37,943 bases of DNA from Nemertoderma westbladi. Lineage: Eukaryota > Animalia > Xenacoelomorpha. The translations under genes were made by a program, and so were the position numbers. The stretch is taken from the NCBI GenBank assembly GCA_032718475.1, contig JAUCBJ010005365.1:1-37943 (forward strand). Reading direction: 5' to 3'. The notes below the pieces were generated by a model. That model worked only from the letters and a program-made list of their open reading frames with translations. It was not told the origin of the DNA and did not search any database. Of the stretch, positions 2,703 to 30,058 are shown piece after piece. The stretch's first letter is position 1. The number at the start of each line of letters is the position of its first letter.

Positions 2703-3276
2703 TCGCAGTTCAAAGCAGCCATTTGCGAAAGGTATAATAGTAGAACATTGAAGACAAAGATGTATAAAATTTTTAGTAGAAGAGGCAATCCTTGCTATTC
2801 TACCAAAAATTGTATACTCATATAATAATTCTATACATAGATCTATTGGAATGCCCCCAATTCAAGTCAATAAGTCGAATGAAGATAATGTGAGAAGAAA
2901 ACTTTACGGAAATTTAGCTAAAATCATTGTAACAAAACCCAAATTGAGAATAGGTGACAATGTGCGACTTAATATAGCTAAAACGGCGTTTGAAAAAGGT
3001 TATACAAAAAATTGGACTGGTGAGGTGTTTACTGTGAAACGTATAAGACTAGATCGTTTTCCTCAGCCTATGTATCATATAATAGATTCAGTTGATAGAG
3101 AAATAGAAGGAACATTTTACCCTCACGAATTGCAGAAGGTTACACAAACAACTGATATTCAGCCAATCGAGTCCATTTTGAAGTCTCGATTAAAAAACGG
3201 TCGGAAGGAATTCCTTGTAAAATTTAATAACTATAAACGGAGCTCTTGGTTGAACGAGTCCCAACTACGTAAATAA
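2703..3276 (+). pseudogene. Polinton retroviral-type integrase, C-terminal half with chromodomain-like tail
   Basis: KAAICERYN(S)RTLKTKMY (catalytic Glu helix), then a frameshift, then LPKIVYSYNNSIHRSIGMPP, GDNVRL...FEKGYTKNWTGEVF, GTFYPHELQ and the chromo-like IESILKSR...EFLVKF...SWL. The 5' half is cut off by the LINE. Confidence 0.88.
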
Positions 3277-3286
3277 ATCAACAAAA

Positions 3287-4209
3287 ATGAATAACTATAT
3301 AACTTTATTCTCAAATGGACCTACAAACAAATTTCCTGATAACACCCTTTCGAAATTTACGGTTGATCTACCATATACAATCAATCTCAGTGGTAATGTA
3401 GAAGTGGGACTATCTGAAATTCAATACTGTTCCTCATTCTATAATATACGTCAACAATCTCTGTTTACAATTTATTATGGAGATAGGACATCGCAAGTTG
3501 TTATATTTGAACCAGGACTATATACGAGTGTAGAAGCCATTATTAATAAAATCAATCAACAAATTGATCACCCGAAGTGGCCCCAAATTCAATATTTCTA
3601 TTTGAACCAGGACTATATACGAGTGTAGAAGCCATTATTAATAAAATCAATCAACAAATTGATCACCCGAAGTGGCCCCAAATTCAATATTTCAAATACT
3701 CAAATAAAATCGAGCTCGCTACTTCGCAACACTTTTCTTTTGAAATTACTGGAGATTTGATTACAATACTCGGTTTTGAGGAGTTTACGCAGGATTATGA
3801 TCCGAGGGATGTACCTTATCTAGCTAATTGGTATGATTATTGGAGTGTAAATGTTAGTGAATTTGGCTCTTTAACATTCAAACAGCAACCGGGACGCGTG
3901 CTCATTTTAGAGGGATTTGTCCCTTTTCTTGCGATTTAGTCTTAGGGCAACATAATTTGTTTATCTATAGTGACATTACTTCTCATGTGACTGTAGGAAA
4001 TACGACGGCACCGTTATTACGCACGGTGCCTCTCGAACTTGAGCATAATAAAGTTATAACACGCGAATTTAAAAAAAAATTATTACAGACCAGTTGCTAG
4101 AACAGTTATTAATCAGATAAATATTGAATTACGCAACGAAAAAGGAGAACTAATATTATTTAATGGAGGTGCAACAATAATTACCCTACACTTAAAAAGT
4201 AAGTCATAA
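3287..4209 (+). pseudogene. Minor capsid (penton) protein 1, frameshifted
   Basis: N-terminal YITLFSN...FPDNTLSKFTVDLP..INLSGNVEVGLSEIQY; C-terminal LFIYSDI...VGNTTAPLLRTVP and YRPV...INIELRNEKGELILFNGGATIITLHLK. Broken by a 95-bp duplication and two further frameshifts (~3930, ~4075). Confidence 0.8.
3504..3693 (+). repeat. Exact 95-bp tandem duplication
   Basis: 3504-3598 equals 3599-3693; removing one copy rejoins the ORFs starting at 3287 and 3577 in frame. Confidence 0.95.
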
Positions 4210-5003
4210 TGGAGAAAATATTATATTTACCCTCGAATTCTTCACCTAAACGATTTCAATTAAATCAACCTTCTAACTTTAATGTGGATCTATCTGAACC
4301 ATTGCGTTTTAGTGGAAAGTGGATGGTGGGTTTGTCAAAAATTGTTTACCTCTCCTCGGTTCATAATTTAGAAGATACATTCATTTATATTCAGAGTTTA
4401 CAAGGAACTAAAAGAAAATATATAATACCATCTGGTTGCTATACTGATGTGGAGGCGTTGCTTACACAGCTAAATATAGATGGTCTCAATTCCCATTTAG
4501 AAATAAGACAAAATGAGCTTTATGACAACATTAGTATTCAGTTTATCGGTGAAAGTAAAGTTGTTCGTTTTTATGGAAATAAGTTGATTGAGTTACTTGG
4601 ATTGCGGGGATTAGAAAATGAGTATTATGTTAATAAAAATAAATTTCTTGTTAGCCTAAAAAATGATTATCTACAAATAACGCGAAGGGGGGAAATAGAG
4701 GGTGATTCTGATATATTACATATTCAAAAAGCAGCAAATGTTTTTATGGGAAACATTAGTATATTTTCAAATATTTGCGGAAATGAGATTGTTGGAAATC
4801 AACTGAAACCCCTCTTAAGATCTATTCCTTATCAAGGAGATTATGGTAAGCTTGTTCATCATGAATTCACAAATATTAATTATAAATCCATTGATATGCA
4901 AAATATAGAAACAATAAATATACAGTTAAAAAATGATCGAGATGAATTCATAAAGTTTAATAATGGTACTGTAATTGCGACATTAATTTTGAAACGCCAA
5001 TAA
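4209..5003 (+). CDS. Minor capsid (penton) protein 2, intact, 264 aa
   Basis: LYLPSNSS...NQPSNFNVDLSEPLRFSGKWMVGLSKI, IPSGCY, IFSNIC...IVGNQLKPLLRSIP, YKSI...INIQLKNDRDEFIKFNNGTVIATLILK; paralogous to penton 1. Confidence 0.82.
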   Translation: MEKILYLPSNSSPKRFQLNQPSNFNVDLSEPLRFSGKWMVGLSKIVYLSSVHNLEDTFIYIQSLQGTKRKYIIPSGCYTDVEALLTQLNIDGLNSHLEIRQNELYDNISIQFIGESKVVRFYGNKLIELLGLRGLENEYYVNKNKFLVSLKNDYLQITRRGEIEGDSDILHIQKAANVFMGNISIFSNICGNEIVGNQLKPLLRSIPYQGDYGKLVHHEFTNINYKSIDMQNIETINIQLKNDRDEFIKFNNGTVIATLILKRQ

Positions 5004-5136: not shown

Positions 5137-6271
5137 ATGAAGGGTCTCAGCTCAGAAATTGTTACACCCCCTTCCATAATGAGGCAACGATTACAATTAT
5201 TAGAAAGGAAACGAAAGGCGGGGGGAGGACTACCTTGTTTTGAGGGGGGATATAGACATCGACACATGAACACGTTCGTGGGGACTTCGCGCAGCACGTA
5301 GTCGGCAAGCCTTGGCATACGGTTCATATAGAGCAAATGGGGCATGTCTAGTTTGGACCCCATATCCCATGCTATAAATGTATTCATTCGATATACAATC
5401 ATATGTTAATCCGCTAGGTGGTGTCAAATTGTTATTCTGCAATTTCGTACTTACCAGTGCAGCACTGTACAGCAGTACCGTACCGGTAGGCCTATGTCAT
5501 TACTTCTGAGTCTCTAGCGGATCCCCAATTAAATGTCTTAACTTTTCAATTTCGTAAAAGATAGACTTCATGATTCTCTACAGGCCACCAAAATTTCAGC
5601 TCAGGAAAATGAGGCCTTCCCGAGAAATTTAACATTTTCTAAAAACCACATAATCTGTCGTAGCTGACGTCAGACTGCATGATTTTTCACCAAACTCTAC
5701 AAACTTTCTAAACTTTCTCTCTACTACTTACCTACTAAGTTTGGTTCAATTCCAAACGAGCGATACCGAGAAATTCGCGTTCAAACATTTACCAGACAGA
5801 CGGACGGACAGATAGACGGACAGACAGACAGACGGACATGCCCCATTTGCCCTATATGAACCGTATGCAAAGGCTCGCCGACTACGTGTCTCGCCCCACA
5901 GTCGCACAGTTTTTGTGAGACACGGTCAACGAGGTAAAGGTATCCTTGGAAATATTATTCGGATTGCAACTAAAGTAGTGCCCAAAGTTATTAAGCCCGT
6001 CGCGCGAGCAGCAATTCGCAAAAGTGCTCCTTTTGTAAAAAAGACAGGGAGAAAAATTGTCAAACGAGTAATTCGTCGGGGAATTCCACAACTTAAAAAG
6101 ATTGGAAAGAAATTAGCAGAACAGGCTCTCGCCAGCTCAAAACCTTCCACTAAACGAGTAGCTCATAAAATTATTGAAGAAGTTTTAAATGCTGCTGATG
6201 GGAGGTCAATAAACGAAACTCGCAAAAAACGCAAATCAAAAAAGCATCACTGTCCAGATATTTTTGGCTAA
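5137..6271 (+). pseudogene. Basic core/DNA-condensing protein (pVII/pX-like) split by an insertion
   Basis: Removing 5269-5899 gives in-frame ...KAGGGLPCFEGGYRHRHM-SRTVFVRHGQRGKGILGNIIR..., a Lys/Arg-rich protein ending DIFG, located just upstream of the major capsid gene. Confidence 0.65.
5269..5900 (-). mobile_element. Helentron-associated (DINE-1-like/HINE) non-autonomous element
   Basis: Minus-strand 5' end TGTGGGGCGAG, (GTCY)n microsatellite at ~5794-5837, ~54-bp internal inverted repeat (5296-5348 / 5835-5888), 3' end CCCCACGAACGTGTT, no TSD. Confidence 0.7.
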
Positions 6272-6285
6272 ACTAAATAATAACA

Positions 6286-7543
6286 ATGGAAGAAACCACG
6301 GAAGAACTAAATTTAGTTAATCGCGGTAATGTTCAGACTGTAATTGAAGAAAGTTTTGAGCAGGAAATATACCCTGTGACTACATTGGGAGAGGGCACAT
6401 CAGTTATAGATTTCATGATTGAAAAGTCAGAAGATTACTATAAGATAGGAAGTGAAACAACACTACAATTAGTATATCGTATTGTAACAACAACACGACC
6501 TGACAATGGCGCAGTTTATCAAACACCACTAAGCCTCTCTACTCTATTTTCAAACATTAGTGTTTTGATTAATGAGCGGGAGGTAGAGTCTAATACTGCA
6601 AACTATCCCTATAAAGCTTTCCTAAAAGCGGTCTTACTTAATGATCAGAGTACAAAAGAAACGATTTTAGCTGTTAGCTGCCGAAGGGTTTGCAGAACAA
6701 GAAGCATTTGGTGTTCCTGTAGACTTTGCTGCAGCTGCTCATTTGGAAAGTAGACCATATTATGTTCAGGGGTCTCTATTTGTTGACCTTTTTGAACAGG
6801 CTAAATTTATCCCACCCAAAACTAGTATAAGAATTAGATTAACAAGAGCTACAAATGCATTTAACTTAGTATGTATTGCAGCTGTACAAGAGCCTCGAAT
6901 CATTATATCTAATGCTTTGTTGAAAATTAAACGAGTAAAATTGGATCCATATATACGTCAACAACATATAGAACAATTAAAAATAGGAGATTATATTTAT
7001 CCAATTATACAGAATGAGGTGACAACCTTTACTATAGCAAATGGTCAACAATCTCATGTGAGGGAAAATTTGTTTACAAGCAAGAATGTACCTCGCTTTG
7101 TTAATATTGTCATGGTTCGAAATGACTCTTACAATGGAAACTTAAGATCTAATTCACTATTGTTTGATCACTTTAATGTGAATTACTTACAACTTACACT
7201 GGATGGTAAGGTAATTGGAGGTGTGACATATAAACCAAATTTTGCTACTGGACAATATATTAATGAGTATTGCGCCAGTCAAAAAAACCTGCTATCTATA
7301 ACCAGAGGTACAAACAACGGCATTACTCCCACTAGATTTTGTGATTTATATCCAATATTTTCTTGGAATTTATCCCCCACGGGATTTCTTGATGAAGACG
7401 AACGAAACCCACATCAAATAGGCAATGCTAGATTAGAGATTGCTTTCTCAGCTCCTTTACAAAATACAATTAACGTTATTATGTGGGTGGGATATGATAG
7501 AACTGTGAATATCAGCAATGTCGGATCAGTAACTATTTTCTAG
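6286..7543 (+). pseudogene. Polinton/adintovirus major capsid protein (double jelly-roll), one frameshift
   Basis: Q..IEESFEQEIYPV, LSTLFSNISVLIN, NYPYKAFL, DLFEQAKFIPP...IRIRLTR, NLFTSKNVPRFV, FDHFNVNYL, GNARLEIAFSAPL. A 7-bp duplication TTAGCTG (6667-6680) shifts the frame; removing it gives 416 aa. Confidence 0.88.
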
Positions 7544-7553
7544 AAAGAAAAAC

Positions 7554-7981
7554 ATGTTGAACTCATATGATTTGAATAATTTCCCTATATAGAACATTAT
7601 CGTGGTTCTTTCGCCATTGATCAATTACCAGCGAAGGATGGCTCTAAAATGAGCTTCATTTCAAATACTCAAGCCGCTCATTTACCTGGTATGCACTGGG
7701 TCGCTGTTTTTATGAATGAAAATATAGGTGAATACTTTGATTCATTTGGAGTGTTCCCCCCGGCTCGTATAGAAGACTGGTTGTTGCGTAATACAATAAA
7801 ATAGACAAGGACACGAAAAGTGGTTCAACACCCTCTAAGGACAAGTTGTGGGGGATACTGTTTATATTACTTATCTAAACGATCAAAAACTGACACGCCT
7901 CTACGCAAGTTTGGAACAGACTTGAAACAAAATGAAAAGATACTTGCATGTTGGTTGCGGAACAAAGCCATAATGAATTGA
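7554..7981 (+). pseudogene. Adenain-family maturation cysteine protease (missing from the ORF track)
   Basis: YRGSFAIDQLP, FISNT...PGMHWVAV (His), EYFDSFG (Asp), VQHPLRTSCGGYC (Gln, Cys). Lesions are a 2-nt frameshift near 7590 and an in-frame TAG at 7802-7804. Confidence 0.9.
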
Positions 7982-8221: not shown

Positions 8222-9934
8222 TTAGTTTATATCCACAGCATCTAGCTTTATCTTTTTCTGTTCTATTGGAGGATAGTGAGCTAATTTTCGTTTTATAATT
8301 TCCATCGAATATCTTTTAGAGACGTTGGGGGAATCATTAGGGTGAAATAGATTGAGGTGGATCTGCTTGGGGAGGAAAACTGCATCTTTTAGTATGCGTT
8401 TGAGAAAGTTGATGCAACACTCAACAGCATAGTTTGAAGGTAGGGTTAATTTCTTTGTTGTCTTCAGGTTGACAATAATTGTTTCTGATGGTGTATGTTG
8501 AATGTGTATAAGGGGGGTGAGATAGTAATGGGAGGAAGTGGATTGTTGAATGAGATGAAAGTTGGAGAAATCACTCGCTTTTATATTTAAACCATCGGTA
8601 AACTGAAACGTAGTTGATTTCAAATATTTTTTGATGACAGGCCATATGGCAACATAAGCTTCACCTTTGAATGAATAAATGAAAGCCGCTACTGATTCGT
8701 ATAAATTAAGACACTGGTGATTAGGTAGTTGTAGTTGCTTTGGTTCATAATCACTATTGTTAGCCAATGACTTTAGTTCAGAGAGTGCTTCTCGGGCGCG
8801 ATCTGTATTGTCAATAGAGAACATGTAGTCATAGCGTCTGTCAGAAATTTCGAGGGTTTCGCAGCTGTAAGCGGTATAAATTTTTATTCGATCTGAAATT
8901 AATTCTTCGTGGTTGACTTCATCGTAGCATTCGTATCCTTCGACCGCAGAATCGAACCATGAAATTTTAAGAAGTTCATTTCTCATGAGTAAAATTGCAT
9001 CTCTTGTGGAAACAATAACTTTGTTTGAATCAACCTCAACTCCGCTCGCGATTGCAATGTTTCTTTTATTATTAATATTTGTGATATAACCAAAAGTAGA
9101 ACTATCGAAAGAAACATAGTTCTCTGACTCTAAGACAATGTGCGAGATTGGATTGATGTAAAGACGACAAATGTTTATATAATGTTGTAGTAAAGCAACC
9201 GCAGTGTCTGAGATGGTTAACCAACCCCCATCTACTGTATCTTCTAGTTGTATTAAATCAATAGGTTTCAGTGGGGATGTTTTCGAATAACGAACAACTT
9301 TAAAATTAAAACCAAAATAATGTGCTTTGCTGTTGTTGTAGAAACAGGTTATTTCATTCAATTGTTCAATAAAAGTTAGTACATCATATCCAAACAGTTT
9401 GAAGAAACGAGATTCATCTTTGAGGGGATGAATCGAGGCGTTCCAAATAATTAAAAGAATTGAGTTTGAAATATTATGAAAATCAAACAGACACTCATCA
9501 ACAAAAAAGGAAGCTTTGAGTGTTGACATACCAAGGAGCTTGTTTGCAGATTCTTGTGTTACATTGCTGTGGATATATTCAACAACCGGTTGAGGTATTA
9601 CAAATGTTTCTAGCGAGGTTGTCAGATTGAACATTATATTCGATTCTGATTTGTGCAGTTTGAAACCATGGTTTGCGGAATGAAATTTATCATTATTTAG
9701 AGTTTGATATTGACCATCCTTCAACTCAAAGCAGGATCGTAGAATGAAATGTGCATAATTTGCTGGAATGAGTTGGGGTTGGTTAGATGAAGTGGTAACC
9801 GTCATTGGAAAGCGTTTGTTCGAAGGATCAAAATATAAACCGAATGAGTTGTCTGAGAGAGATATTTGATTTTCGTTGGAAACAATTTTTACTTGAGGGA
9901 AGTTGAACTTTTGAAGGAGTTGAGCTTGAGCCAT
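8222..9934 (-). CDS. Uncharacterised 570-aa intronless protein, probably a viral accessory gene
   Basis: Long uninterrupted ORF in AT-rich DNA, convergent with the protease; C-terminal basic NLS-like KRK...KKIK. No family recognised. Confidence 0.7.
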   Translation of the reverse strand: MAQAQLLQKFNFPQVKIVSNENQISLSDNSFGLYFDPSNKRFPMTVTTSSNQPQLIPANYAHFILRSCFELKDGQYQTLNNDKFHSANHGFKLHKSESNIMFNLTTSLETFVIPQPVVEYIHSNVTQESANKLLGMSTLKASFFVDECLFDFHNISNSILLIIWNASIHPLKDESRFFKLFGYDVLTFIEQLNEITCFYNNSKAHYFGFNFKVVRYSKTSPLKPIDLIQLEDTVDGGWLTISDTAVALLQHYINICRLYINPISHIVLESENYVSFDSSTFGYITNINNKRNIAIASGVEVDSNKVIVSTRDAILLMRNELLKISWFDSAVEGYECYDEVNHEELISDRIKIYTAYSCETLEISDRRYDYMFSIDNTDRAREALSELKSLANNSDYEPKQLQLPNHQCLNLYESVAAFIYSFKGEAYVAIWPVIKKYLKSTTFQFTDGLNIKASDFSNFHLIQQSTSSHYYLTPLIHIQHTPSETIIVNLKTTKKLTLPSNYAVECCINFLKRILKDAVFLPKQIHLNLFHPNDSPNVSKRYSMEIIKRKLAHYPPIEQKKIKLDAVDIN

Positions 9935-10045
9935 CTTGAAGAAAATATAATATTATGAATAACAATAAATGTATTATAACTTTAAATAAAAAGTAAAATG
10001 GTCAATAATATTTTTGTAAGTAAAGTTCAAAGCGATGGATGGGGG

Positions 10046-10137
10046 TTTATAAGGGAAAGGGTAACCAATGAAAATAAAAGTGAAGCTTGTGGGTACCAAT
10101 AGAAATAAAAAAGAGAGAGAGAGAGACGTGCTATTGG
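10046..10137 (-). promoter_or_regulatory. Possible Pol II promoter of the 570-aa ORF
   Basis: Minus-strand TATAAA at 10046-10051 and CCAAT at 10133-10137, upstream of the ATG at 9934. Confidence 0.3.
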
Positions 10138-10704
10138 ATTGAGGGAATAATAAACACATTTCATTGGGTTCATTAAATGTAAAACCATAGTTAGGATGGG
10201 AAATGGGGTGAATTGAGAAGCGGGGAGTGCGCTGGAGAAAAGTGTATGTAATGAATGGGCTGCTGCATCAGAATGGGTATGCTAATTAATGTTAAACTAC
10301 AGTATCTGAACAAATATTTTAGGCATGGTATGCGTGAGGGGTTATGCATTACTTCAAACAAAAAACTACAGTAACTAGTATAGAGAAGGTTGGGGGTTAA
10401 TTTGACATATGGTTTTTTTGGGGGTATTGGCTTTGTCAATGAGCTAATACGCGCGCAGGCTGCTTCGCAACACAATGCGAAAGAATGCAATCTATTGCAA
10501 GACCAGATGTTTATTCTAATTTCTCTGGCGAATTGACAATGGTTTGCATGATAACAAAGCTGGAGTTTAAATAATTTAAAATGTGTGGCAGGCCCACGTT
10601 GACATAGAGTATAACTCAACATGGGATTCCGTGGGATGCTTAATCCTTCACGCATGCCATACCAAAAACTATGGTCCTGTTTGAAATGTTGAGGTGGACC
10701 TTTC

Positions 10705-10737
10705 TATATAAATAAAACCATGTAAAGTTAGATCATT
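10705..10737 (+). promoter_or_regulatory. TATA + Inr core promoter of the CHHC zinc-finger gene
   Basis: TATATAAATA at 10705-10714 and TCATT at 10733-10737 (~30-nt spacing), ~75 nt before the ATG at 10813. Confidence 0.5.
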
Positions 10738-10812
10738 ATCTCTAAAAAACATTAAGTGAAGTTTTTCAAAGTTTTTTAAAAGTAAATCTTAATAAATTTG
10801 TCTTTTGTTACT

Positions 10813-11136
10813 ATGGAGTACTTTATATGCCCGTATGATGCCACGCACCGGATTCATTCGGAGAAATACGTCAAACATCTAAGAAAATGCCGCAAGAACT
10901 TTTCCGACCAAAAAATGGTTCAGTGTCCCTTTGAAGTTGCGCACAGCTTTAGAGGAGCTGAAAAGGACCACCATCTACGATTTTGTGAATACCGGAACAG
11001 GAACTCAATTTTTGAGATATTAAAAGAAGAGAAAAAAGAGAAAAAAGTAGAGAAGAAGGAGAAGAAATTGAATGTTCGATGGCGTGGGGAGAAGAGGTGT
11101 GGGATTGATGTGATGATGCGATTCTCCGCACTCTAG
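10813..11136 (+). CDS. GTSF1: GTSF1/Asterix-like protein with two U11-48K-type CHHC zinc fingers (107 aa)
   Basis: CPYDATHRIHSEKYVKHLRKC and CPFEVAHSFRGAEKDHHLRFC, both C-x5-H-x9-H-x3-C, joined by an RKN linker as in GTSF1; intronless; first ATG at 10813. Confidence 0.85.
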   Translation: MEYFICPYDATHRIHSEKYVKHLRKCRKNFSDQKMVQCPFEVAHSFRGAEKDHHLRFCEYRNRNSIFEILKEEKKEKKVEKKEKKLNVRWRGEKRCGIDVMMRFSAL

Positions 11137-11254
11137 TATAAATTGTTATGTAATTATAATTGGATGTCCGGTGGTGTGGGGAGAAGAGGTGTGGGATTGA
11201 TGTGATGATGCGATTCTCTGCACTCTAGTATAAATTGTTGTGTAATTATAATTG
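11066..11254 (+). repeat. 92-bp tandem duplication of the 3' end of the GTSF1-like gene
   Basis: 11066-11157 versus 11158-11249, with a few substitutions. Confidence 0.9.
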
Positions 11255-11290
11255 GTGTATAAATTGTATGTACGGTGCAGCCATGTATAT

Positions 11291-14200
11291 TAGGCCGGAG
11301 CTTTCAAATATAAATTTTGGATCTCAGCACTGTACAAGCAGGATATATGGTTTTAAACTATGCCGATTCCAAATCTGATATCCGTTTCACCTGAAAATCT
11401 GACCAACCTATGCAGAATTGGAAAATAAAAAAATTAAAATTTTGCGAAAAATACAAATTTTTATTAAAATTTCATAGTAAACACCATGCACTATATCATA
11501 CTGATGACTATTAGAGTTTGTATAAAACAATAATTTATGCTCCATTTATTACTTAAAATACAGATTTGAAGTCTCTCTTTGTTTCAAACTTATGCATGAC
11601 TGAGCGCCCATGGAATGTCCCTAGTATGTCCCGATGGCGTTTTTTGTAACCAAATACTCTTCCAGAAACTTCAGTTACAACCTTTACTGTCCGTTCTACA
11701 CTTTGAGTATGGCAGGGGAAACGAGGAATATGAGGACAAGGAGGTGATGCCATTTGAGACCATTCCCTAAGTGTTTCAGTTGGTATATGCTTGGTTATAG
11801 GTGGCTCTGTTCGGTCCTCTCCTTGCCATGAAATAATATCCTCATATGATTTAGCTGAAAAATTGAGCTTGGGGACTTGGAATTGTCTCTGAGGAATCAA
11901 TCTGCTCCGTGCTCTCAAAATTCTCACAAAAGCAAGTCGCCGAATATAAACTCTCTCATCAGCTAGCATTGACAGGAGTAAGTTTTCAGAATGGCAAGAG
12001 AAAGCATTACGCTGCAGAGACTTCTTCAAAATCTTAAGTTCTTCTTCAGGCAGTTGCAATTGCAGGGTGAGGCTAACCAGAGTGAAGAAATTACGAGGTG
12101 CCTGAGTTATATGTGAGTTATTTTTTATTGTAAACCATGCAATTGCATAAACCCTGACAATGAAATTGGCTATCGATATGACATGTTAGGTTGGTGAATA
12201 TGTGCTTACATAAAGTCTCAGTATCCGGTTTGCAAATGTCACCCATTGTGAATGACTCAGTGTTCCAGGAGACGACTTAGCCAGTTCTGGATCAATAATG
12301 CCAGTGTTAACAGCTTTCACAATTTTGTATAAATATAGTTGGTCACTGCTGAGTTCCTTTTTATCGACATCAGGAAATTCATGAGAAAGTATAGGAACAA
12401 AAGCAACTATAGGTCTTAATTCACAATTAGATAGCTGCTTTCCTATGGTACCACTGAAAGACTTTGGACCTGTTGTTGCGCCTTCATCAACATGTACAAA
12501 ATACGCTCGCAGTGGAAGTTCAACAAGATGCAACTGGCAAATTATCCATTGTAAAGGACGTCCTAGTGAGATTTCCAGCCTCCTTATAATACCTGTATGA
12601 ATTCCAACGTTAACTGCAGTACCATCGGAACCAGCTCCAACAACCCTCTCTGCATCAAAGTAAGGCAGTATAAGATTGGTGATGGTAGCTGATTTCCCAT
12701 CAGCTGGTGTGATGTGGTCGAGGTACTGTGAGCATGGTTATTCAACTATAGATATATGTTCTTCAACTAAAATAGATTGTCTCTTGTTGATCATTGTTCG
12801 GGTTTTGTCCTTACAGCCATCAAAATAGATGGCTGTTAAGTTTGGATGTTTTGCAGCTGATATTTCCTCCATTACAAAGTTTTTGGCACGGCGAACCGAT
12901 CCACTACACCATCATTCTCATGTCCAAAATCAATCAATGTTGCAGAAGCTATTGCAGCAGCAGCTCTCTCAGAAACACCATACCGAATAGTTTGAAGATC
13001 TACATTGTGCAATTTGATTGTGCGATCACAATATGTTGAATGAGATACTGATGGGCATTCAAAGTCAACATCTTGACTTGTTTCGAGTTTTCTCCTCTTT
13101 ATGTCGATTTCATCATTAGTTTCAGAACTTTCTGATGCGGTATCATGGACTACAGTTGGATTGGAAATAGCAGATAATGCTGATGTTGAGGCCTGTCTCT
13201 GTAAAAAAATTTTAATTTTTTATTAATTGAATATATTTTTTATACATGTCAATAATTTATTATACTTTCGCTCCAACATACTACAAACTATTGTCTCAGA
13301 AACTTTCAAATAATAATTTATGAGGCTGACACACAATGCATCATTTCATTATGTATCATTAAAATTGTAAATATAAATGGGTTGACAAATATCTAAAGGC
13401 ATCATTTAGATGAAAATGAATTAAGTTATACAAACATGCTAAAAAGAAACATTAATATATAATTATTATTTTATATATGTTACCTCTATTTCAGAACACT
13501 CTACCAAAAATGTCTCAAAAATAATACAAAAAAGTATGGTTAAAATATTTTCCTTATCTCAGAATATATTTTTGAATAGTTTTTATAACAAAAATACCTA
13601 TTTTCAGAGATAAAATAAATATATTATATTGAGTACATACCCCCCCCCCCCCCCCCCACCCCTACCCCCACCCCCTCCCCCCAACTGGTATTCATAAGGA
13701 TGTTTAACGAACCTGTTCATAAGATTTGCGTTTTATTCGCTGGTTGATTAAACGTGATTCATTCACATCCACTTTGCCAATCTGTAATTGCTGTACTGTC
13801 CGCTGATCGATAAGAAAATCACGCTCGATTTTTGGGACCTTTATCTTGCAGTTACAAAGAAAAACGTTAATGCATCTACATGAACAAACATCAAACAAAG
13901 TTGACAGCATTGTCAGAAAGTCATCTCTCTTCAAATTTCCTCTTAAAATTTTAGCACCTGCTGCGATGTAATCCTTAGTAATTCGTCGTACTACACTGCT
14001 TTCAACAATAGTTGGAATGGATGCTTTTCTCCACACTTTGATAACATCAAGTGCTGTGTTTCTAATTGCTACAACTTTGGATTCATGGACATAATGATCC
14101 TCGTAGCACCTAACCACATCATGTCCAGTCGGTAAGACATTTCCAGGCAATGGTGATGGACTACCAAATAGAGGGTGACATGTTGAACGAGTATTCATTA

Positions 14201-14966
14201 TAAAACCTCATACAAATACTATTTATAATTGCATATAACTGAAATTAATATTACAGCAATGGGGTAGAAGGCCTATAATTAATATCAATCACAATAACAA
14301 TCCTAAATTAACGGAGTAATGAAGGTTTAGGACATCAACCTGATAAACTAGAAGATCAATATTAGATATTCTTAACTTAGGGTTTGGGCTCAATGGCACT
14401 CCAGTGTTTAAACAGCTAAAAGCTGTCTAAACATAAATATTTTAAATATTTTACCTAAATATTTTACTTATACCAGCAATACTGCACCAGTCTGCCAGTA
14501 CAATTTCCTGGTACCAGTACACAATTAGAATCCCTATTACAGTATTAATATTCCTTTAAAAATCAAATAATAGTAAAAATATCTCTGATGCCTAAATCTA
14601 CTCTGCATTTGAGTCCACACTTACACTTAATATTACCTACAGTATTTGCTTATTCCCAATACCGGTATTCAAATTACAATCAGGATAGACCTACAATTTT
14701 ATGTAGGCCTTCTGGTTGTTAGTAAATCACAAAATGTTTGTTTGATTCAGGTAATTTGAATTTCCCGGGCTTTTATATTACATTTTTGAATAAATTTCTG
14801 ATACCTAAAATTGGCAGAAAATGGAGGAATATCGCAAATTTAAATCATTTATTCTGCTATACTTACTTTAGATCTTATTCAAAATTATTACTGACATATC
14901 AAATGTGACATGTTGTGGCTACTTTTTGTGCTTGTACAAGAAAATTGGAATGAATACACCGGCCTA
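11291..14966 (-). mobile_element. hAT-superfamily (hATm-like) DNA transposon
   Basis: Termini TAGGCCGG (11291) and CCGGCCTA (14959-14966) enclose the transposase; the flanking 8-mers do not match. Confidence 0.65.
11553..14198 (-). pseudogene. hATm-like transposase, two exons (14198-13713, 13198-11553), with frameshifts and stops
   Basis: LFDVCSCRC..CNC..KVP..ERDFLIDQR, RYGVSERAAAAIASA, IYFDGCKDKT (Asp), GSDGTAVNVG (Asp), WIICQLHLVELPLR (CxxH), PCHTQSVER (Glu); phase-0 GT-AG intron at 13199-13712. Confidence 0.8.
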
Positions 14967-15053
14967 TTGTGGTGTATCAGAATGTTGGTTTCAAAATATG
15001 ATTTGAACATTCACATTGACAGAAAATATCCGATGAAATATTTTATGTTTACC

Positions 15054-15274
15054 TGTGTTTTAAATATGTAATGTAGTAGGACAATATGATAATGCTCACC
15101 ATATCAACCGACCCTATTGGGGCTCGAACCCGGTACCTAGGTTTCAAACTTCCGGTTATCATCAGGAAGTTTGAAACCTAGGTACCGGGTTCGAGCCCCA
15201 ATAGGGTCGCTTGATATTTTTCGCCATGGAGAGCATTATCATACTGTCCTACTACATTATATATTCAAAACACA
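15054..15274. repeat. ~220-bp palindrome (foldback) with tRNA T-arm/B-box-like arms
   Basis: Perfect 45-bp inverted repeat at 15109-15153 / 15165-15209 with an 11-nt loop and imperfect outer arms; each arm contains GGGTTCGAGCCC. Confidence 0.8.
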
Positions 15275-15298
15275 CAACGATTTACTTATTATTATTAC

Positions 15299-15394
15299 CT
15301 GTGTTTTATACTTCGGCAACTTGGGGTCCATCTTCTTGGAAACATGTTTCGCTAAATCGTCGAAAACATGAAAAGCGAATGTCCCAACCAGTTG
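15299..15394 (-). CDS. GLS: Glutaminase exon 10
   Basis: [32 protein letters not shown] followed by the donor CAG|gtaat. Confidence 0.9.
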
Positions 15395-18300
15395 CTGCAA
15401 TGTAAAAATAGAGGATTAATCAATATAAAGCAGGACAGATTGGTCAAAAGTAATTTACAGCAAAACTAGTCCCTAAAGATGACACTTAAAAGGGTTCTGC
15501 ATAACCATAATTTGAGGAGGAATGTTGTGGAACACTATCAAAATATTACCTTAAGTCATCGCAGAAACAATTAACTAATGCCATAAAAACTGCAGCCACT
15601 TATCCAACAAAAAGAAATAAAACCCTTGGTTCGATAATGAGTGCAAATCCAAGAAATCTGAAATTCAACACTCACATACCCGTCATACTCACATACATGT
15701 CCAGGAATATAGTGTCTTTATTACGGTACATTACGAAGAGTCGCAGAAAACTGATATAAATACTGTACAAAGTTAAATAGCCCACCACAAATTGTGAATT
15801 ACTTAATTATGTTTACCTGACAGAATTTTATTCCTCTGACACTGTTACCGAGCTGATCTAATGGCGGACTCCATATGACAATCCCACAGAGTTTCGGTAT
15901 AACCAGAATAATAGCACCAGAAACAGCAGATTTACCGGGTAAGCCAACCTAAAAGGAAAATATTATATAGCCAACTGACTTACTTACTGTTTAAACCAAT
16001 TGCCTTTATTTATTCACATATCTCGCCGGAGATCGTGGGTTCGATCCCTGCACGGGTCCATGGTAGTTTCGTTTTGGCACAAATCCTTTAAATTGATTAG
16101 CCAAGGCGCTGATCTGCCTTGCATCATTAAATGATAGCTAATTGAGTTTCATCTGGGGAGTAAAGTTCTGGGGGGACCGCACTGGAAATAAGTCGTCAGA
16201 CTTTGTGCGTAATCCCTGGCCTAGCGGCCAAAGAAAATTTACTTTTTATTTACTTCATAACATTTATAGTACAGAGATACAGGCGGGGTATGCATGGTGG
16301 GATTTAAAGAACGCTGTCTGGGCTGCAATAGCAATACTTCTGCCTATTACTGTACGTGTACAATTCCCCTCTCTGGTTAGGCTACAGCAACAACTCCCAG
16401 CAGCTAGCAGCTCCACACCAGCGCAGCAGAGACTATGTTGACCAATAATGGGCAGGATTAAATTTGTACTCAATAATTGTGTTTCTATCATCATCATTGA
16501 GTCTATGGCAATTTTCGTATGGGGCTATTTTTCGAAATAAAGAAAAAGACACTTTGATAATTTTTTTCGAAACTTTTATTTCCACATCCTGGGGTTGAGC
16601 TTCGTCTATTGATATAACTTTCATTGACGTACGAATTATAGCTTCGGAGGAGTTCACCTGATATACATAGATACATAATACTGTACTTTTACAGTAAGAA
16701 GTCCTAACGGTCTTCTAATTATTTATCTGTGAAAGATAATTTTAAATTTCGAGGAAATTAAATTATTTTACATGGAAGTCTACGTAATGTTGTTTAAATT
16801 AACTAAATTTGTCATTTTTTGCTAGGACACCGGCTTAAGGGGAGGGGGGGGGGGGGGGGGGGGTATACCCCACCTCAGGTAAAATTTTCAAATTGTTTCA
16901 AATTATTTCACCTAGAGCAGAATTTAATGAGGATTACAAATCTGAAAACCGCTTAGTGAGACCTCTTTCCGAGTTATCACCGTTTTTCCGTATGACGGTC
17001 TGTCCGTCAAATTATAAGAAATGCAGAAGACCGACAGACAGAAAGAATAGACTAGATTCCATCAAAATTAAAACTGACATCGGAAATGAAATCAGTGTCC
17101 CCGAAAACCCCAGTAATGAACATTTTAGCTCGTTGGTGTGCATCCTTCGTGCCAGAAATAATTAACCAACCAAAACACAGACAGCCAATTTTGGCGGGAC
17201 GGTTTAAACTTTGGAGGGCATTTTCTCGGAATGACATTTTTCATTTTCAATTTTCTACTCCTCTGTAATTTTTCAACCAATTTTATTCGTGTTTAGCTCA
17301 TTCAAACGAGCTTTGGAAGCTCTTTAAAAGTTATCTTATGGAATTTTGATAAATATTACCATTTTTTCTAATTAGCCAATTTTAATTAAAAATATGATAA
17401 TTAATTAATTAAATCGCATCCCTTATCTCGCTTTCCACACGAGATTTTGAAAAATCCGGGTTCTTTCCATTTGCCTTTATAATCAACGACTCAACTCACA
17501 ACTCGATAAGGGAAATTTTTTCCCTTGGTTTTCTTAATGTTGACGGACATACCGTTTCGAGTGCACCAATTATGTAGGGAATAATATTATCAGCAGCTAT
17601 TTAATTAACCGCTCCAAACAATGTAAAATCCAATCAGAAGCCTTCATTTCGTATGTAATTTATGTTAAATTAATTTCTTAAAATATGTAGTAATAAAATA
17701 AATATGAGTACCGGAATAATATTACTCATTCTAAGGGAATATTACTAATGTAGTACATCAATCATTGCGACTTTACATATTGAAACAGATATTAGAATAT
17801 TCATAAGTAAAATATACAAAAAATATTTAACAAAAGTAGTAACAATCCTGTAATATCATACAGTATATTATGATTTCAACATGCGGTTGGTCTAGTGATA
17901 TTACTGGGCTTCCGCAATCCGTTAAACCGATAAGTTTGGATAGATTTCGTAGAGGATTGGCCGAATTATTAATAATTAGCAACAAGGCTACAGAATGACA
18001 AATCCACAGATACACCGATTTAGTTAGTGGTATGCTAAAACCATATGCTAAGCTCGCTTAATTTTGTGGCTCGCCCCACATAATAATTTAATTTCGGTTA
18101 ATTTTAACCAACAATACCAAAGTACTGTATCTTTGACATTTAATATGAAAGTGTAAAGAATTAATGTCAGCAGTTAATTAATTAACTGCTCCAAACAAAA
18201 TTTACTACGCTATTATATCGATCGTACAACCGTAAACTGTAAACAGATAATCTAATGTAATAAACAAATAAAATAAGAATACCGAAAAAATATTCTCATT

Positions 18301-21300: not shown

Positions 21301-24300
21301 TAACCACCTCGCAAACCAGCATTCCCCACCAACTCCCGCCGCGCAGCTTCATACTACGAGACAGCCCACCCACATTCGACATCGAGTCTGAACGCCTCAC
21401 CTGGGACCTGTGGTGCGATGAGTGGGACGGCTTCCTAATAACCTCTGGACCACCTAAACGACCACCTACTGGATCAGTTTGTGGCTGGATTCAACGACCA
21501 TGAGGTCACCGAACAACTCCTCCACCTCGAGAATGGAGCCACCCTCAACGACGCCCTCAAACGCCCCCAGTCGGTCTGTCCTTCATCGTCTCCATGACTA
21601 CTGCCACACTGTCCCACAGCATGGCGACCCATTCGACACCGACCCCAGATCCCAGAACCTCAGAAACCAACCACCACCCAACATGCCAACAATGCGGATA
21701 CCCACAGCACACTGCTGGGAAAATGTGCCCCGGTTTACAGGCGACATGCCACCACTGCGGTATAACCAGGCATTACGACCATATGTGTCGTACTAAACCA
21801 AGAGGACCCCGGCCACAAGCCCACGCTACCTCCGGCTCCGACGACGCAGACACGTACACCGCTGCGACCAACGCTGTCGTTTGGTCCGTCCTGGTCAGAG
21901 ACGAACTGGAGGATGCGAACTGGAGAACTGATCATCTTGCGATGATCGTTTTTTATTGTTTGTTTTTTACTATATTTTATGATGCTTTTATTGTTGGTTT
22001 TTAATTACTACATTAATTTAGTTGATTTTTATTTCATAACTATGGCTATTGCAGTCACGAACTATTAATTACTGTGTACTATGTGTTGTCAGCGCCTTAG
22101 AGTACGTATATGATGTAAATTTGGCGCTATATAAATAAATATATATTATTATTATTATTATTATTATGCCCTGCGGGTCTCGGCAATCGGGGCACTGGAG
22201 CCCCTCGAAACCATCACCATCGGGTTCCAAGTGACAAGGACCCAGCCTTTGGAATATCCGACGTCCGCTTTCTTCCCGACTCTGGGGCATCAGTCATCAG
22301 TATAATCTCGGAAGGACATTATTATAAATGTTAACATGTTGAAAAGATGTGGGGCGTGCGTAGAAATAAGCGTACCGCTGCATTAATTGTTATCAAACGA
22401 GACTGCTATGCTTTGTAACAACTTATGTACTCGACTATTCTAAACCGCTAGACTCACATTGAAAGCAAATTGTCCACTGTAGTCATACAGGCCACAACTC
22501 AGCATTAGTGATAATGTATCCCGAACTGAGGCAGTTGTTAGTATCTTCTCCCCTGTTAACGGGCATATACCCCCGTTTGCGAGTGTTGAAGCCATCACGC
22601 TTAATGACTCGCAGTTCACTTCCATTGAGCACATCTGGACACATAAAGTGAGAAAAGATAAAGAGCGAGTAACAAAAAAGAAATATATATTTTCTAGAAT
22701 AATTATATACAGTGTACCTATATTTCTCTGCATAAATATTTACAATAACTATTTACATCATTATGTGCAAAGTAGCACTTTGCAGCGTTATGACCCGAGT
22801 TTATTTATGTACCGAGCGAGCGCAGCGAGGGAGGCTTACATCAATAAACAAGGGTCTTTAACGCTGTAAAGTGACCTTTGCAAGGAATGATGTATGTAAT
22901 TTTGTTACATTATGTCAACTTATCAGCGTTGTGTCAACGTGTAAAAAGTCGTTTATGTCAACTTATAAAGAAAGGATTTTATGGTTGCTCATTTAAACAT
23001 TTTAATCATGAACTATATCAAATAAGTGAAATTTATTAACAGGTACACAATATTAATTATACATTATTAAATCTAAATAAAGTTTATTGGATGTTATCTC
23101 CTGCTTGGGTGTGATAAATCATTAATCCATCTTGACTATAGTCGACTGAAGCAAACTGAGTCACCGTTTTGTGTCCGTTCAGTTTTACTGAACATTGTCG
23201 TCACTTTCTTTGGTCATTTTAGTGTCTTCTATTGGACGTTTCGACATAATGGATTACAGTACACGTTAAACAATTCTTTACATACAGTAGCTAGTCCTGC
23301 ACTGTAGTCCCGTCACTGCAAACTGGATAATAAAGCAGCACTCATTAACATAAATGGAAATAATAAATTCTGGAATACGGTAATTGAAGTTGTTTCCATG
23401 TCATTGATTACTTTGCAGCGTTCCGTCCTATAGGCCGTAACGCTGCAAAGTAGTACTTTGCTGCGTTACGAGTAATTCACCAGAACGCTGTTAAGTTGAC
23501 ATAATGTAACAAAACTTTTTTTTAATTTTTTTTTACTTATTTAAATTAAATTAAAAGTTACATTACATTTAGAGTACATTACATTACAAAACTTTACCTT
23601 AAAATACAACTGGAGTGTTTCATTAAGATTGGTATAAGGGGGGAAGCATTTGTATTCCTGCATATAGTAACCCAAGGCGAAGTTCCTACTGTTAGCAGAA
23701 TATTCCGAGTCATATGTTGTTTGGCTGAATCCAACGAATTCACCACCAGCTAATTTTTTCATTATACTATGTAGCTAAAATAAATAAAAAAAGTATTAAT
23801 TTTACAAAAAGATGGCAACATTTTTTTTGTCCAACTTTTTAATCCGCATTTTCGAGGAAGAGTATCTCGCGCCCAGTGAAAAAAAGTACTTATTTTACTT
23901 TTTCTAATACAAAGAGGAAAAATATATTACACTAAGAAGTATTTATTTTCAAGTAAAAGATTTAGTTTTCTTAAAGATGTTATACTTTATGAGTTGTTTA
24001 TTAATAATTACCATCATATTTACTAATATAGAATAAATAATGCAAATTCTACATAATAAACTCCCAGATCGTTTCGAGTACGCGGTGAGTGCAATTACTA
24101 ACAGTATCAAACCGGGCGTTGGCATTGCCTGAAAGCTCCCGTTTCAGCAGGGACACCACTGCGATCGCACCCGCGTTTATCATCGGGTTGTGGGGTTTAC
24201 TGTTTAAGTCGAGACAAATATCGTTGAAATTTCTTCCAGACGGTTCTTGACCGATGTATTCGTGGACCTTTTCTGTACAATAAAAGGTTAATATGTGTTG

Positions 24301-27300
24301 GTAAAGTTGTTTATAATTAAAAAATATAATATGCATTTGGCAGGCATGCAGTATCTGCAGTATGGGTCAACGTACAGTATTTGGCAATAAAAGAGGTGCG
24401 CTATACACCCTATAGCACCCTGTACACCCTGTAGCACCCTGCACACCCTGATTTATTACAATCAATAGATCTGTTGATTTCTGTAGTAACAGCCCCCAGC
24501 TGGGGATGCCCCAAATCAGAACTGGATCTACTGCTGTCCGAAATAAATTTACCTTCATATAAGATTTGTTTCCAGGTGATTTCCCTACCATTGATACGGT
24601 TGTACGGTTAAAACTATGTAACTCCAGTTGAGGAAAGAAAAAAACTTTTTGAAATGTCTAGTTCAAGTTTAAAAGTCGTCATGATTACATCGAACGATAT
24701 TACGTCGAAATTAGAACCAACAAAAATCTCCATAACGCCAGAAAGTGGTGGAACAATTAATTTACATAATAAAGGGATATTCAAAATTTGGTGCTAGAAC
24801 CAAAAATTTACACTACCCAAAAAACCAGTTTGAATTTCTAGCTCATTTCACATGTATTCCATCGAATTGTAATCCCCAAAAATCCAATGTTACTATAAAA
24901 AAAAGAGATGATACAATTAATAATTTCCAGCAATTAAATTCTCAAAAATAGAGATAAAATTAGTGTTCAAAAATTGCGCTATATATCGAAAAGTAGGCGT
25001 AGGATGTAAGGAGGCGATATATTTTTCACTATTAGGAGACAACATATTTCTATGATAAGACCTAAAAGTTCAGATTCCAACTCAGTTTGTTTCAGAGAAC
25101 CACGGTAACAAAAAACCGCGGTAGGGGAGGGGGGGGGGGGGGGGGGGTGTCATATTGAACCAACGTAAAACATGTAGTGGCATATTGGGTGGGCTCGAAC
25201 TCTCGACCTATGCCATCGCAACGCTACGCTAATCTGTACAACCGTACCTGAACCGTAAAGAGTAGAGGCCAAGGCATACAGTAGAGGTTTGGAACAGGAT
25301 TGAATGGTAAATGTATCAGAAACATCGCCGATGCTAAATCTAAAAATATAAAGAAATTAAATTTACATAAATATTACCACTCACACTCAAAAAAGATATG
25401 GACAAACATTTTTTGGTTATATTTTCCCCGATTTATATTTGATGTACTACATGGTACACGATTCAGTCCCTTTGCCTCTCTCAGTAAATTTAGTAAACAA
25501 AATAATAATTAATGGTTAGTTTATATTTTCAATGTTTTCCAAATGAAGCTCGTTATCCCTCCGTCGGTGTGGTTTCCCCCAAGATGGTTTTACCATTTTA
25601 CCTTAGAGGACCTCACAAACACAAAACCCAAAGCTGTTATAACATCTGGATTGTAATTTACTTTAAAAAATTCGTTTTCGACACGTTCTCGCAGATAGGG
25701 GGGATACTGGACGCAATAAAAATTCATCCCTCTCCAGGGGGGAATTCGACGCAAATAACAGCTCATTACTCTCAAAAATAAAACTTTAACCTGTTCTATT
25801 GTGTTTAGTTTATTGTTTTGGTTAAAAAACGTGCCACTGTATCCTGCTCCTTTCCCTAAATTGAGAATTTAACTTTGAGGCGGGATATTAATTCGCCAAA
25901 GCGGGTTTTGCGTCCAGTTTCCCCCCTGTCTCCGTTCTCGAATCAAGTCAAATTCAATAAATTATCATGTGTTCTGGCGCGACTGATATAACTTTCGCAC
26001 TTTCTATCACAAATGTAGTGATAGAAAGTATTAATATTGAGAAAATAAGTACTTTCTTTCTTTAGTAAGTAGTAATTTGTATAGGTTATTTATTACCTTT
26101 GTCCACTGATAGTGCAAACAGAAACGCCCCATTTTTGTGTGTCAGCTTGGGCTAGGATGGGGATGTACGTTGCAACCTTACCGCCGCCCTCATTGCGGCA
26201 GCTGTTATATAAACGTTCCATCTGGTAGCAAAACTCCTGGAAGTCGGGAATAGCGAGTTTCTTCTCGAACGCATTAGTGAGTATCGTAATATTATCTTTT
26301 ATCGCGCTAAAATATAATTTGTATAACAGTGATGATATTAAAAAATACCTAGATTACGTCACTCACGCCTCCAATATTGTGGGGCGTAAAGAAACTAAAG
26401 CATTTAAATAATAATTCCTGTTTAACAATAATACAGTAATATGATAAATGATTGGTAATATATCTTTATTATCCCCAAAGGATAGTTTAAAAATGTTTCA
26501 AAATAAATACAAAAATATGTAAGTGCACAATTTAAATAAAATATAAGGTTACCGTTTAAAATAACTGATATGAGGCCAATGAAAATATGAGTCCGTAGTA
26601 CTTGAAACTTTCTGGAAAGCTATTATATGATTAATATAACTCAATTTATGAAATCACTTAAATTTAAAGTGTGGGGCGAGCCGTGTATTCTGCGAGGGTT
26701 TTACAAACTGAGACTTTTGGGGTCATTTTAACCTGTCAATTATCGAATGTTGGGATATAGAACATATATTATGGTTGGGATATAGAACATATATTATGGT
26801 TGGGATATAGAACATATATTATGGTTGGGATATAGAACATATATTATGGTTGGGATATAGAACATATATTATGGTTGGGATATAGAACATATATTATGGT
26901 TGGGATATAGAACATATATTATGGTTGGGATATAGAACATATATTATGGTTGGGATATAGAACATATATTATGGTTGGGATATAGAACATATATTATGGT
27001 TGGGATATAGAACATATATTATGGTTGGGATATAGAACATATATTATGGTTGGGATATAGAACATATATTATGGTTGGGATATAGAACATATATTATGGT
27101 TGGGATATAGAACATATATTATGGTTGGGATATAGAACATATATTATGGTTGGGATAAAGTTGGGAACTTACTGAATAAAATCATCGCAGAGAAGAACAG
27201 ATGATACATTAGACGACCTGTATGTTTCTATGTTTGTCCGTAGCTCTGACAACCGGGGGTCTGTGAGCCTCAAACCAAAAGAGTTAATTTCCTGAAAGTT

Positions 27301-28803: not shown

Positions 28804-30058
28804 TTTTCTTCCACTCGAAAAATCGATGTAATTAATTTATATTTATGAAAAGCAACAGAGGCAATAAATAATGAATCAAATAAATATTGATTAACATATT
28901 AAATAATTTTGATTAAAATATTCACTAATATTAAGTAATTAATTATTTTTTAAGATAGGTTTATTTATACATTATGTAAAAACAATAACAAATACACCAA
29001 ACAATGTACCGGTATAAAAGGTATTGTCCAACATAACATACAGGATTAAGCCTAAATCTTTACAGCTTATTTCCAAGGGGGTCTAATATTACGTTAAATA
29101 AATTCAAGATATTTATATATATTATATATTATAGATTCAATCTGCTGTTTGCGAAATAATACATCAATATTACGAGGATCAGAATTAACAGAACAAGGAA
29201 TTCAACAAAATTGTATTGTACATGTTTAATTAGAACCGGTTCCCATAGCAATTATGACTAATTAACCGGTATTTTGGTAAATCATTTATATGAAACCTAG
29301 GAGTGAACTCGCAACTCCAAACCGCACGTGCAGAACCGATTACAATTACTCCCTACCACGATATAATCATAAAACGCGAGATAAATAATAATAATTGTAG
29401 ATCACAATTGTATCTGTATGTGCAGGCTGGTTTCCCTATCTCATATTCAGTCGCAGATAAACTGTTGTATCTCACTGGACAGATCTTTAGCAGCCCGCAG
29501 CTTCCATCATTAACCATCAACCAATCAACTGATCCCTGATAAATGGGTTATAGGGATGTTCCTTATGCTAGGAGCTCTTCTAGGAATACAACATTTTGGG
29601 AAGAGGGATTTGGGTGAGGTGGGGGGGGGGGGGGGGGGGGGGGGGTGCGATTGGATGGGCCTAATTAGTAATTACACCAAACTCAAGCCCCCAACCCCGA
29701 ATATTTCTAGGTTAATTTAAATAATTAGATTTTATCACTTAGGAATTATATACTGTAAATTTGGTTTTTTTATTGGAGCATTCTGATTTGAGCAATATAT
29801 CCTTACGAGGTACCCGAAAACTTGAACCTTAGCCATGATATAGACGTTGTGGGCTGCTTAGCCAGGCAGGTCTGGTCCTCTCTGTTGCAACAGCCAAGTG
29901 TGAGATCCAGCTTTACACTACAGCTGAGAATCCGGGGACCAGGGCCGTATTAATTAACGGCGGGACTTTTGGGACTGTAGGCCCGGGCCCCGAATAAGTT
30001 TGGGGCCCGGGCCTCAAACCAAAATTCATCAATTTTACATTACTTATTATTTTTATAG

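Follow-up and report, generated by a model that had tools for sequence, protein, structure and literature searches.

A frameshifted copy of a compact, repeated GTSF1-like gene beside a decayed Maverick/Polinton in Nemertoderma westbladi

Why does a gene with the zinc fingers of GTSF1, a PIWI cofactor, end in a lysine-rich tail with an acidic tryptophan tail hidden in another frame of the same DNA, and to which genetic entity does this gene belong? These questions are raised by a locus of Nemertoderma westbladi that we analysed within its contig JAUCBJ010005365.1, and "the window" here denotes the whole stretch of 37,943 nucleotides. Both endings had been described in a sequence-only reading of the window, and both are indeed present at the positions given there.

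The GTSF1-like gene and its hidden tail

As the window reads, the GTSF1-like gene is an intronless open reading frame (ORF) of 107 aa on the forward strand (10813..11136) with a lysine-rich, out-of-frame ending. A TATA-like box on the same strand, 108 bases 5' of the start codon (10705..10712), is its putative promoter element. The ORF matches PF05253 in two stretches (E 2.9e-10) and mouse GTSF1 (PDB 6x46; E 4.9e-11), and a single-sequence homologue search with it returned no relatives. The GTSF1/Asterix family is defined by two tandem N-terminal CHHC fingers of the form C-P-x4-H-x9-H-x3-C (PMC9539491), and the ORF carries just this arrangement with finger 1 at 10828..10890 (C6, H12, H22, C26) and finger 2 at 10924..10986 (C38, H44, H54, C58), both on the forward strand. 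A predicted model of the fingers (pLDDT 79) has its best PDB matches in 6x46 (E 1e-4) and in the GTSF1 chain of a SIWI-piRNA-target-Maelstrom structure, which it overlays (9nhc_E, TM 0.80), with U11-48K being a far weaker structural match than these GTSF1 chains. In mouse GTSF1, the RNA-binding basic ridge of finger 1 is described as R26, R29, K36, and K39 (PMC9385479). The corresponding residues of the window gene are H15, K18, K25, and K28, i.e., lysine at three of the four RNA-binding positions, and the histidine at the equivalent of position 26 is not a clear loss because this position varies across the family, with arginine in only 88 of 261 rows.

The frame two bases over from this ORF is open from 11016 and ends in EEGEEIECSMAWGEEVWD before a stop at 11106-11108, so that the WGEEVWD motif (the "hook") and its stop span 11085..11108 on the forward strand. 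We compared this ending with two sets of family proteins. The first set came from a cluster-representative search (the best 150 of 460 matches) plus 19 cluster members, giving 169 proteins with tandem fingers in 155 and a tail of at least 45 residues in 114, while the second comprised 112 new proteins (tandem fingers in 102, a tail of at least 30 residues in 89). Among the long-tailed members, a loose hook motif ([DE]x0-2W[DE]) is found in 91/114 of the first set, there within 60 residues, and in 76/89 of the second, and the strict form [DE][DE]xW[DE] in 50/114 and 43/89, respectively. The hook tryptophan of the window gene stands 38-39 codons past the last finger cysteine (family 5-95% ranges 33-52 and 32-43) and falls on W98 of mammalian GTSF1 (horse, P0191) in the alignment to orthologues that the earlier reading had proposed. 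Judging by motif, alignment, and spacing, the hidden tail represents the acidic-tryptophan motif that GTSF1 proteins conserve, in agreement with its previous identification as the PIWI-binding tail.

Could a motif of this kind have arisen by chance? Scored with a matrix built from the hooks of 91 family members, the window motif reaches 8.0. Native hooks, which were in the training set of the matrix, have their 25th percentile at 9.1, above this score, and the fit of the window motif to the family matrix is moderate by this measure. When the 181 bases 3' of finger 2 were subjected to dinucleotide shuffling, 22 of 5,000 shuffles scored at least as high as the window hook in any of the three frames, and [DE][DE]xW[DE] was present in 28 of 5,000. 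Across the 42,297 stop-free 10-mers of the window, only the hook and its second copy (see below) reach a score of 8. The 30-aa hook frame alone had no match in PDB or Pfam.

Loss of W98, W107, and W112 of GTSF1 is reported to weaken MIWI binding 60-fold (PMC9385479), and the horse protein has W107 and W112 in addition to W98. The claim that aromatic residues of the hidden tail would contact PIWI therefore stands in part: the first known contact tryptophan is present, whereas aromatics of the W107/W112 type are absent, with the stop coming one residue after the hook tryptophan. Where family hooks are followed by a continuing tail, another aromatic occurs 5-14 residues on in 131 of 157 cases. 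Aromatics of the W107/W112 type are also missing from members of the Gtsf1L type, and by this distribution they mark a long subtype and not the whole family; 15 proteins of the compared sets end no more than two residues past the hook motif. To call this tryptophan a PIWI hook needs a further qualification, as the same residue binds a Tudor domain in silkworm Gtsf1L.

Sibling copies, the frame break, and the gene end

Our data on sibling copies are short contigs of three DNA runs from two studies (X1, X2, and X3, of which X2 and X3 represent one sample); another run with the same species label, X5, barely covers the gene and was excluded as evidence. With the flank from 11325 onward as reference, contig depth in the three runs is 22-, 16-, and 32-fold over the finger region and 30-48-fold at 10300-10340, on the side of the element, a ratio that is not a copy number. 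Distinct contigs over the stretch amount to 176-247 per run, many of them at 82-95% identity. The GTSF1-like gene is repeated. Upstream of it, the segment 10464-10545 has about ten times the contig depth of the gene in X1-X3 and is nearly the sole part covered by X5. A larger family of elements may share this segment as a regulatory or repeat motif.

Fingers and hook are separated by a purine-rich linker (10987..11070, forward strand) of variable length among copies, which contains the two GAAAAAA runs noted before (11031-11037 and 11040-11046). All seven listed contig pieces from X1-X3 that cross the linker join fingers and hook in one frame. These pieces differ from the window in length and form two length classes and one frame class. 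None of them extends for 31 letters to either side of the break at once, a further 74 contig pieces fall outside the listing, and no stop codon was seen by eye in the finger-hook frame of the sibling pieces within the listed letters. Because all seven pieces join the two parts, the window copy is, as far as they go, the odd, broken one among its siblings. The reverse outcome, i.e., siblings that keep the lysine-rich frame and let the hook decay, did not occur.

The A-runs had been suspected as the site of the break, to be checked by their length in sibling copies. The listed pieces keep the window length over the A-runs that they cover, save for one low-depth length variant of the second run, and depart from it farther 3' at about 11050-11070, which places the break in the 3' part of the linker instead. 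The same runs had led to the idea that slippage of the ribosome or polymerase gives two isoforms, one with the hook and one with the lysine-rich tail. Two A6 runs do lie where the frames overlap and both are open, and the low-depth variant would fit as well. However, no X-XXY-YYZ heptamer was found in the zero frame of the window copy, the longest run is only 6 A, and pseudoknot-free folding gave no stable structure just 3' of the slippage region (z = -0.94; 33/200 shuffles as good). Furthermore, the listed siblings join the frames without any slip, and several of them lose the lysine-frame ending past the hook stop. Slippage therefore appears most improbable.

A side question that concerns only the window copy, and is compatible with the other readings, is whether the break is an assembly error in an intact gene. 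No listed piece spans the break at the window's length, and apart from that length one sibling class matches the window fully or almost fully across 60-66 letters. Real decay is nonetheless present nearby (an internal stop in the protease gene, a split capsid gene, a minor-capsid duplication, and LINE and transposon insertions; see below), and we view an assembly error as conceivable, leaning toward unlikely. As it reads, the window copy itself could encode no more than the fingers followed by a basic tail and is probably a dead gene, as its neighbours are.

The hook lies in a 92-bp tandem duplication (11066..11157 and 11158..11249, forward strand) with 6 differences between the units. As claimed earlier, the second unit repeats the motif: it reads IGCPVVWGEEVWD before a stop at 11198-11200 (repeated hook at 11177-11200), has no start codon of its own, and forms 3' non-coding DNA. 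The duplication is not an assembly artefact because the joint between the units also occurs in X1 and X2. Four of the six differences fall in the first 18 bases (11066-11083 versus 11158-11175) and all four change residues in the hook frame, with WGEEVWD identical in both units; the second unit may derive from a different sibling copy.

Several sibling contigs depart from the window sequence at 11108, 11109, or 11111, just past the hook stop, and have therefore lost the lysine-frame ending. In some of them (6 listed rows, X1-X3), the stop is followed by a segment from upstream of the gene (10326..10360, forward strand) at what would be a head-to-tail junction. These joints mark the hook stop as the conserved, true 3' end of the gene and suggest that the gene is repeated partly in head-to-tail units. 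One contig class joins linker-like letters almost straight onto the last hook bases (11102; X1, X3), which could reflect either a deletion or a variant with a shorter linker.

Substitutions in the finger frame are mostly silent among the listed rows (23 of 28 versus 8.3 expected), a count of 24 from the main variant listing, from which 56 rows of the whole stretch are left out, and 4 from linker pieces that covers the fingers only, with no substitutions listed in the hook. The listed sibling differences run from G/C to A/T in 15 cases and the opposite way in 3; considering only C>T and G>A, changes affect 16 of 33 silent sites versus 2 of 52 replacement sites, which are unphased and treated as independent. 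Zinc ligands and basic ridge are untouched by any listed finger difference. By these counts the fingers are under purifying selection, and because their differences are mostly silent, intact copies should make, or recently have made, a protein. We are thus highly confident in the combination of a hook that is the family motif, siblings that keep it in frame, fingers under purifying selection, and a repeated gene. The earlier proposal of a minimal protein made of fingers plus hook agrees with these siblings with both parts in one frame; such a form was already known from host genes.

The surrounding Maverick/Polinton and the host locus

Besides copy number and purifying selection, the sequence-only reading had missed the Maverick setting of the gene. 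On the forward strand, this element includes an ORF at 2752..3276 that we take, from motifs and gene order, to be the C-terminal part of an integrase with chromodomain (chromo E 0.013, below the cut-off). It is immediately preceded by the reverse transcriptase of a LINE (814-2649), which has a direct repeat of 195 bp. Two ORFs at 3287..5003, of which the first is interrupted by frame changes as well as a 95-bp duplication, are presumably minor-capsid-like by motifs and position, and a basic ORF at 5816..6271 presumably occupies the position of the PW gene; neither region has a library match. The gene of a double-jelly-roll (DJR) major capsid protein follows, split over two frames (6286..7543). 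Its first Atlas matches are at 0.98 to DJR-like clusters with PF21738 on 10-17% of members, and capsid families come out at 0.95 with a recognition value of 2182, below the 2300 mark; scans of Pfam and PHROGs gave no match for it. At 7580..7981, still on the forward strand, a probable cysteine-protease gene with an internal stop has its best PDB match in ASFV S273R, which is weak (E 0.057) with the His and Asp motifs aligned.

Between the protease and the GTSF1-like gene, and divergent from the latter, is a 570-aa orphan ORF (8222..9934, reverse strand) that is probably an accessory gene. A TATA-like box 117 bases 5' of its start is similar to that of the GTSF1-like gene, and the ORF is intact though neighbouring genes are broken. 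It had no relatives in any library tried (Pfam, single-sequence homologue, PHROGs, and IMG/VR searches), and its structure model (pLDDT 32) was unusable as evidence.

The second module of Mavericks is described as integrase, minor capsid, PW, major capsid, and protease genes flanked by accessory ORFs (PMC8097293, also the source for the PW position), and the window shows the same order with the accessory ORFs after the protease. By this order and its genes, the surrounding element is a decayed Maverick/Polinton. A protein-primed DNA polymerase and a packaging ATPase are not in the window, where the element runs off the left end. Its right side is cut off by the insertion of a broken DNA transposon (11283..14276, reverse strand, boundaries approximate), and contig depth drops to one long contig from 11283-11289. 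The transposase in its ORF pieces (11553-14198, reverse strand) is decayed, shows a PCHTQSVER motif, and has no Pfam family match. As for Maverick end motifs, there is no ACTACT in 9900-16000, CTCTCT occurs only inside the transposon, and no terminal repeat was found.

The host locus itself is a glutaminase gene on the reverse strand with exons at 24049-24336 and 22440-22733 (Pfam PF04960) and further exons near 15815-15950 and 15299-15400, which by their motifs we take to reach down to a donor site at 15299. No exon past this donor was found by motif within the window, and the intron after the last exon therefore probably holds the Maverick, the LINE, and the DNA transposon. Other repeats of the window are two hairpin-type insertions (5295-5888 and 15054-15274) and a 3.1-kb duplicated repeat with an 8-bp microsatellite (30053-34336).

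Whose gene is the GTSF1 homologue, then? It sits in accessory position after the integrase-capsid-protease block, 880 bases from the 570-aa ORF. From this position, its gene design, and its presence as the lone unit of a repeated family in a probable glutaminase intron, we infer that it is probably cargo of the Maverick, a linkage seen in one copy only. Alternatively, the gene would be one of several GTSF1 paralogues that the host has in tandem, or would travel with another small mobile unit, and one copy would merely have come to lie beside the Maverick. The joints from the hook stop to upstream sequence suggest head-to-tail units, several GTSF1 paralogues are common in animals (bioRxiv 2022.06.30.498350), and the third-position G+C of the fingers is host-like (0.50, compared with 0.38-0.47 in the glutaminase exons and 0.22-0.33 in the core genes of the element), though the listed sibling differences run mostly toward A/T. 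Yet the window has a single unit, which stands in the usual Maverick accessory position next to the divergent orphan ORF with its similar TATA-like box, high depth extends upstream past the bin of the junction segment, and no poly-A tail or other mark of reverse transcription was seen in the sequence 3' of the gene. This origin seems rather unlikely to us; were the gene only part of a host tandem family, what is left of the finding would be a paralogue of known build that is broken.

Competitor or activator, and comparison with known systems

Intact siblings of the gene are predicted to encode a protein of fewer than 100 residues that consists of two CHHC fingers, the linker, and the acidic-tryptophan hook directly before the stop. 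In the GTSF1 family, the basic ridge of finger 1 binds RNA and central aromatics bind PIWI (PMC9385479, PMC9539491). By analogy, the fingers would rest on the duplex of piRNA and target, with the tryptophan docking on a PIWI or Tudor partner, so that the short protein might bind host PIWI at the site used by GTSF1 and act as a competitor of host GTSF1, not as its replacement. With this site occupied, piRNA silencing of the element would likely be dampened. We favour such a competitor because the gene is divergent, amplified, apparently element-borne, and without the later aromatic contacts, and within the cargo case the chances of a decoy are about even. Our best explanation overall, held with somewhat less than even confidence, is therefore a frameshifted copy of a compact, repeated, probably Maverick-borne GTSF1-family gene whose siblings encode a predicted PIWI-site competitor. 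The fuller scenario, in which a Maverick/Polinton captured and amplified a stripped-down GTSF1 as a mimic that occupies PIWI or a Tudor partner and thereby suppresses piRNA defence, is more tentative.

Maverick cargo could also be a normal activator of PIWI slicing like silkworm Gtsf1L. The element might profit from it by keeping its own activity or that of competitors in check, or because the host would tolerate a supplier of a germline factor. Zinc ligands, fold, and three of the four basic residues that bind RNA persist under purifying selection, the retention of these basic residues speaks against a decoy, and the histidine of the ridge is no clear loss, as noted above. A minimal build does not imply a decoy either, because Gtsf1L, a host protein of 101 residues that likewise terminates at the hook tryptophan, activates its PIWI partner, if modestly. 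It has moreover been argued that a broad piRNA block would cost an inherited element the fertility of its host (PMC6719617). The long branch and the amplification of the gene fit conflict equally well, however, and the benefit to the element is speculative, so we consider an activator unlikely. Sequence alone cannot tell decoy from activator; the slicing assay described in PMC9385479 is able to separate them. The predicted target calls for caution because GTSF1 homologues are able to switch partners (PMC13650160).

With a competitor as the favoured reading, the locus bears on a proposal from the literature: piRNA genes evolve as if attacked, and transposon-encoded mimics of piRNA proteins have been put forward as an explanation (PMC6367137). 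No element-encoded anti-piRNA factor was known according to a 2019 review (PMC6719617), and a GTSF1 homologue encoded by a Maverick offers a concrete candidate for one. Even as an activator, it would represent a cofactor of PIWI that a virus-like element carries and has amplified, which would still be new in the literature searched. Among the matches listed in our full-text searches, with many subscription papers outside them, none describes a GTSF1 gene carried by a mobile element, and GTSF1 and polinton met in the text of one review in which the terms are unrelated. The minimal GTSF1 build is already known; the mobile-element setting seems not to be. In sequence collections whose limits leave absence unproven, no match was obtained from IMG/VR (scanned with the capsid, P0042, alignment A2, the 570-aa ORF, and the integrase), JGI metagenomes (hook DNA and P0152), or viral models (Foldseek against BFVD, no GTSF1-like match at E 0.001). 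One 12-residue IMG/VR match to the finger region (L001) was dropped as it is not a CHHC finger.

Among host genes, silkworm Gtsf1L ends in W99-D100-D101, binds the Tudor domain of Vreteno through W99, and modestly activates BmAgo3 (PMC10711660; bioRxiv 2022.06.30.498350). Like the window gene, Gtsf1L and its lepidopteran orthologues (P0258, P0263, P0273, P0274, P0277) have two CHHC fingers and a linker of ~40 residues, are about 100 aa long, and end no more than two residues from the conserved W-D. Unlike it, Gtsf1L is a host gene and not on a mobile element. Because the two do not group in our family tree (165 rows, 62 columns, quick method, mostly poorly resolved), the short form is likely convergent. 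The window gene has an end branch of 1.0 in this tree and at most 44% identity to any of the 164 other rows, and we distrust its grouping with two amphioxus proteins (support 90) in view of long branches. Five minimal GTSF1 proteins of about 105 residues (P0004, P0042, P0125, P0152, P0153; two on 49-kb ENA contigs) form a separate clade (support 93) and end in EEKW[DE]F or similar. Another member, P0068 of Branchiostoma lanceolatum (CAH1240888.1), combines a GTSF1-type finger pair with a C3HC4 RING domain, lacks the hook, and might represent either a fusion in the gene model or a form that acts as ubiquitin ligase.

Mouse GTSF1 and fly Asterix (6x46; silkworm GTSF1, 9nhc) share with the window gene the sequence and fold of the fingers, three of four lysines, and the W98-type motif. 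In contrast to them, the window gene lacks the W107/W112-type aromatics together with the whole C-terminal part, is intronless, repeated, and fast-evolving, and is frameshifted in the window copy. Known cargo of Mavericks/Polintons (adintoviruses) includes homologues of Bcl2, IAP, gasdermin, and PLA2 as well as a nematode protease and kinase (PMC8502044, PMC11131425); like the window gene, these genes are intronless, host-derived, and flank the core module. No piRNA-pathway gene is named among them in the main texts of these two papers, from which "GTSF" and "piRNA" are absent.

Mobile elements holding something aimed at host silencing have precedents, and the window element resembles them in this respect. 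The VANC proteins of plants are a transposon counter-defence that is element-specific and unrelated to host cofactors (PMC6719617). A trick at the RNA level was set aside for our locus because the constraint falls on the protein. TART of Drosophila reportedly carries part of nxf2 and is said to act through RNA. Unlike both VANC and TART, the window element would hold a homologue of a PIWI cofactor that is constrained as a protein and whose activity against silencing is, so far, a prediction.
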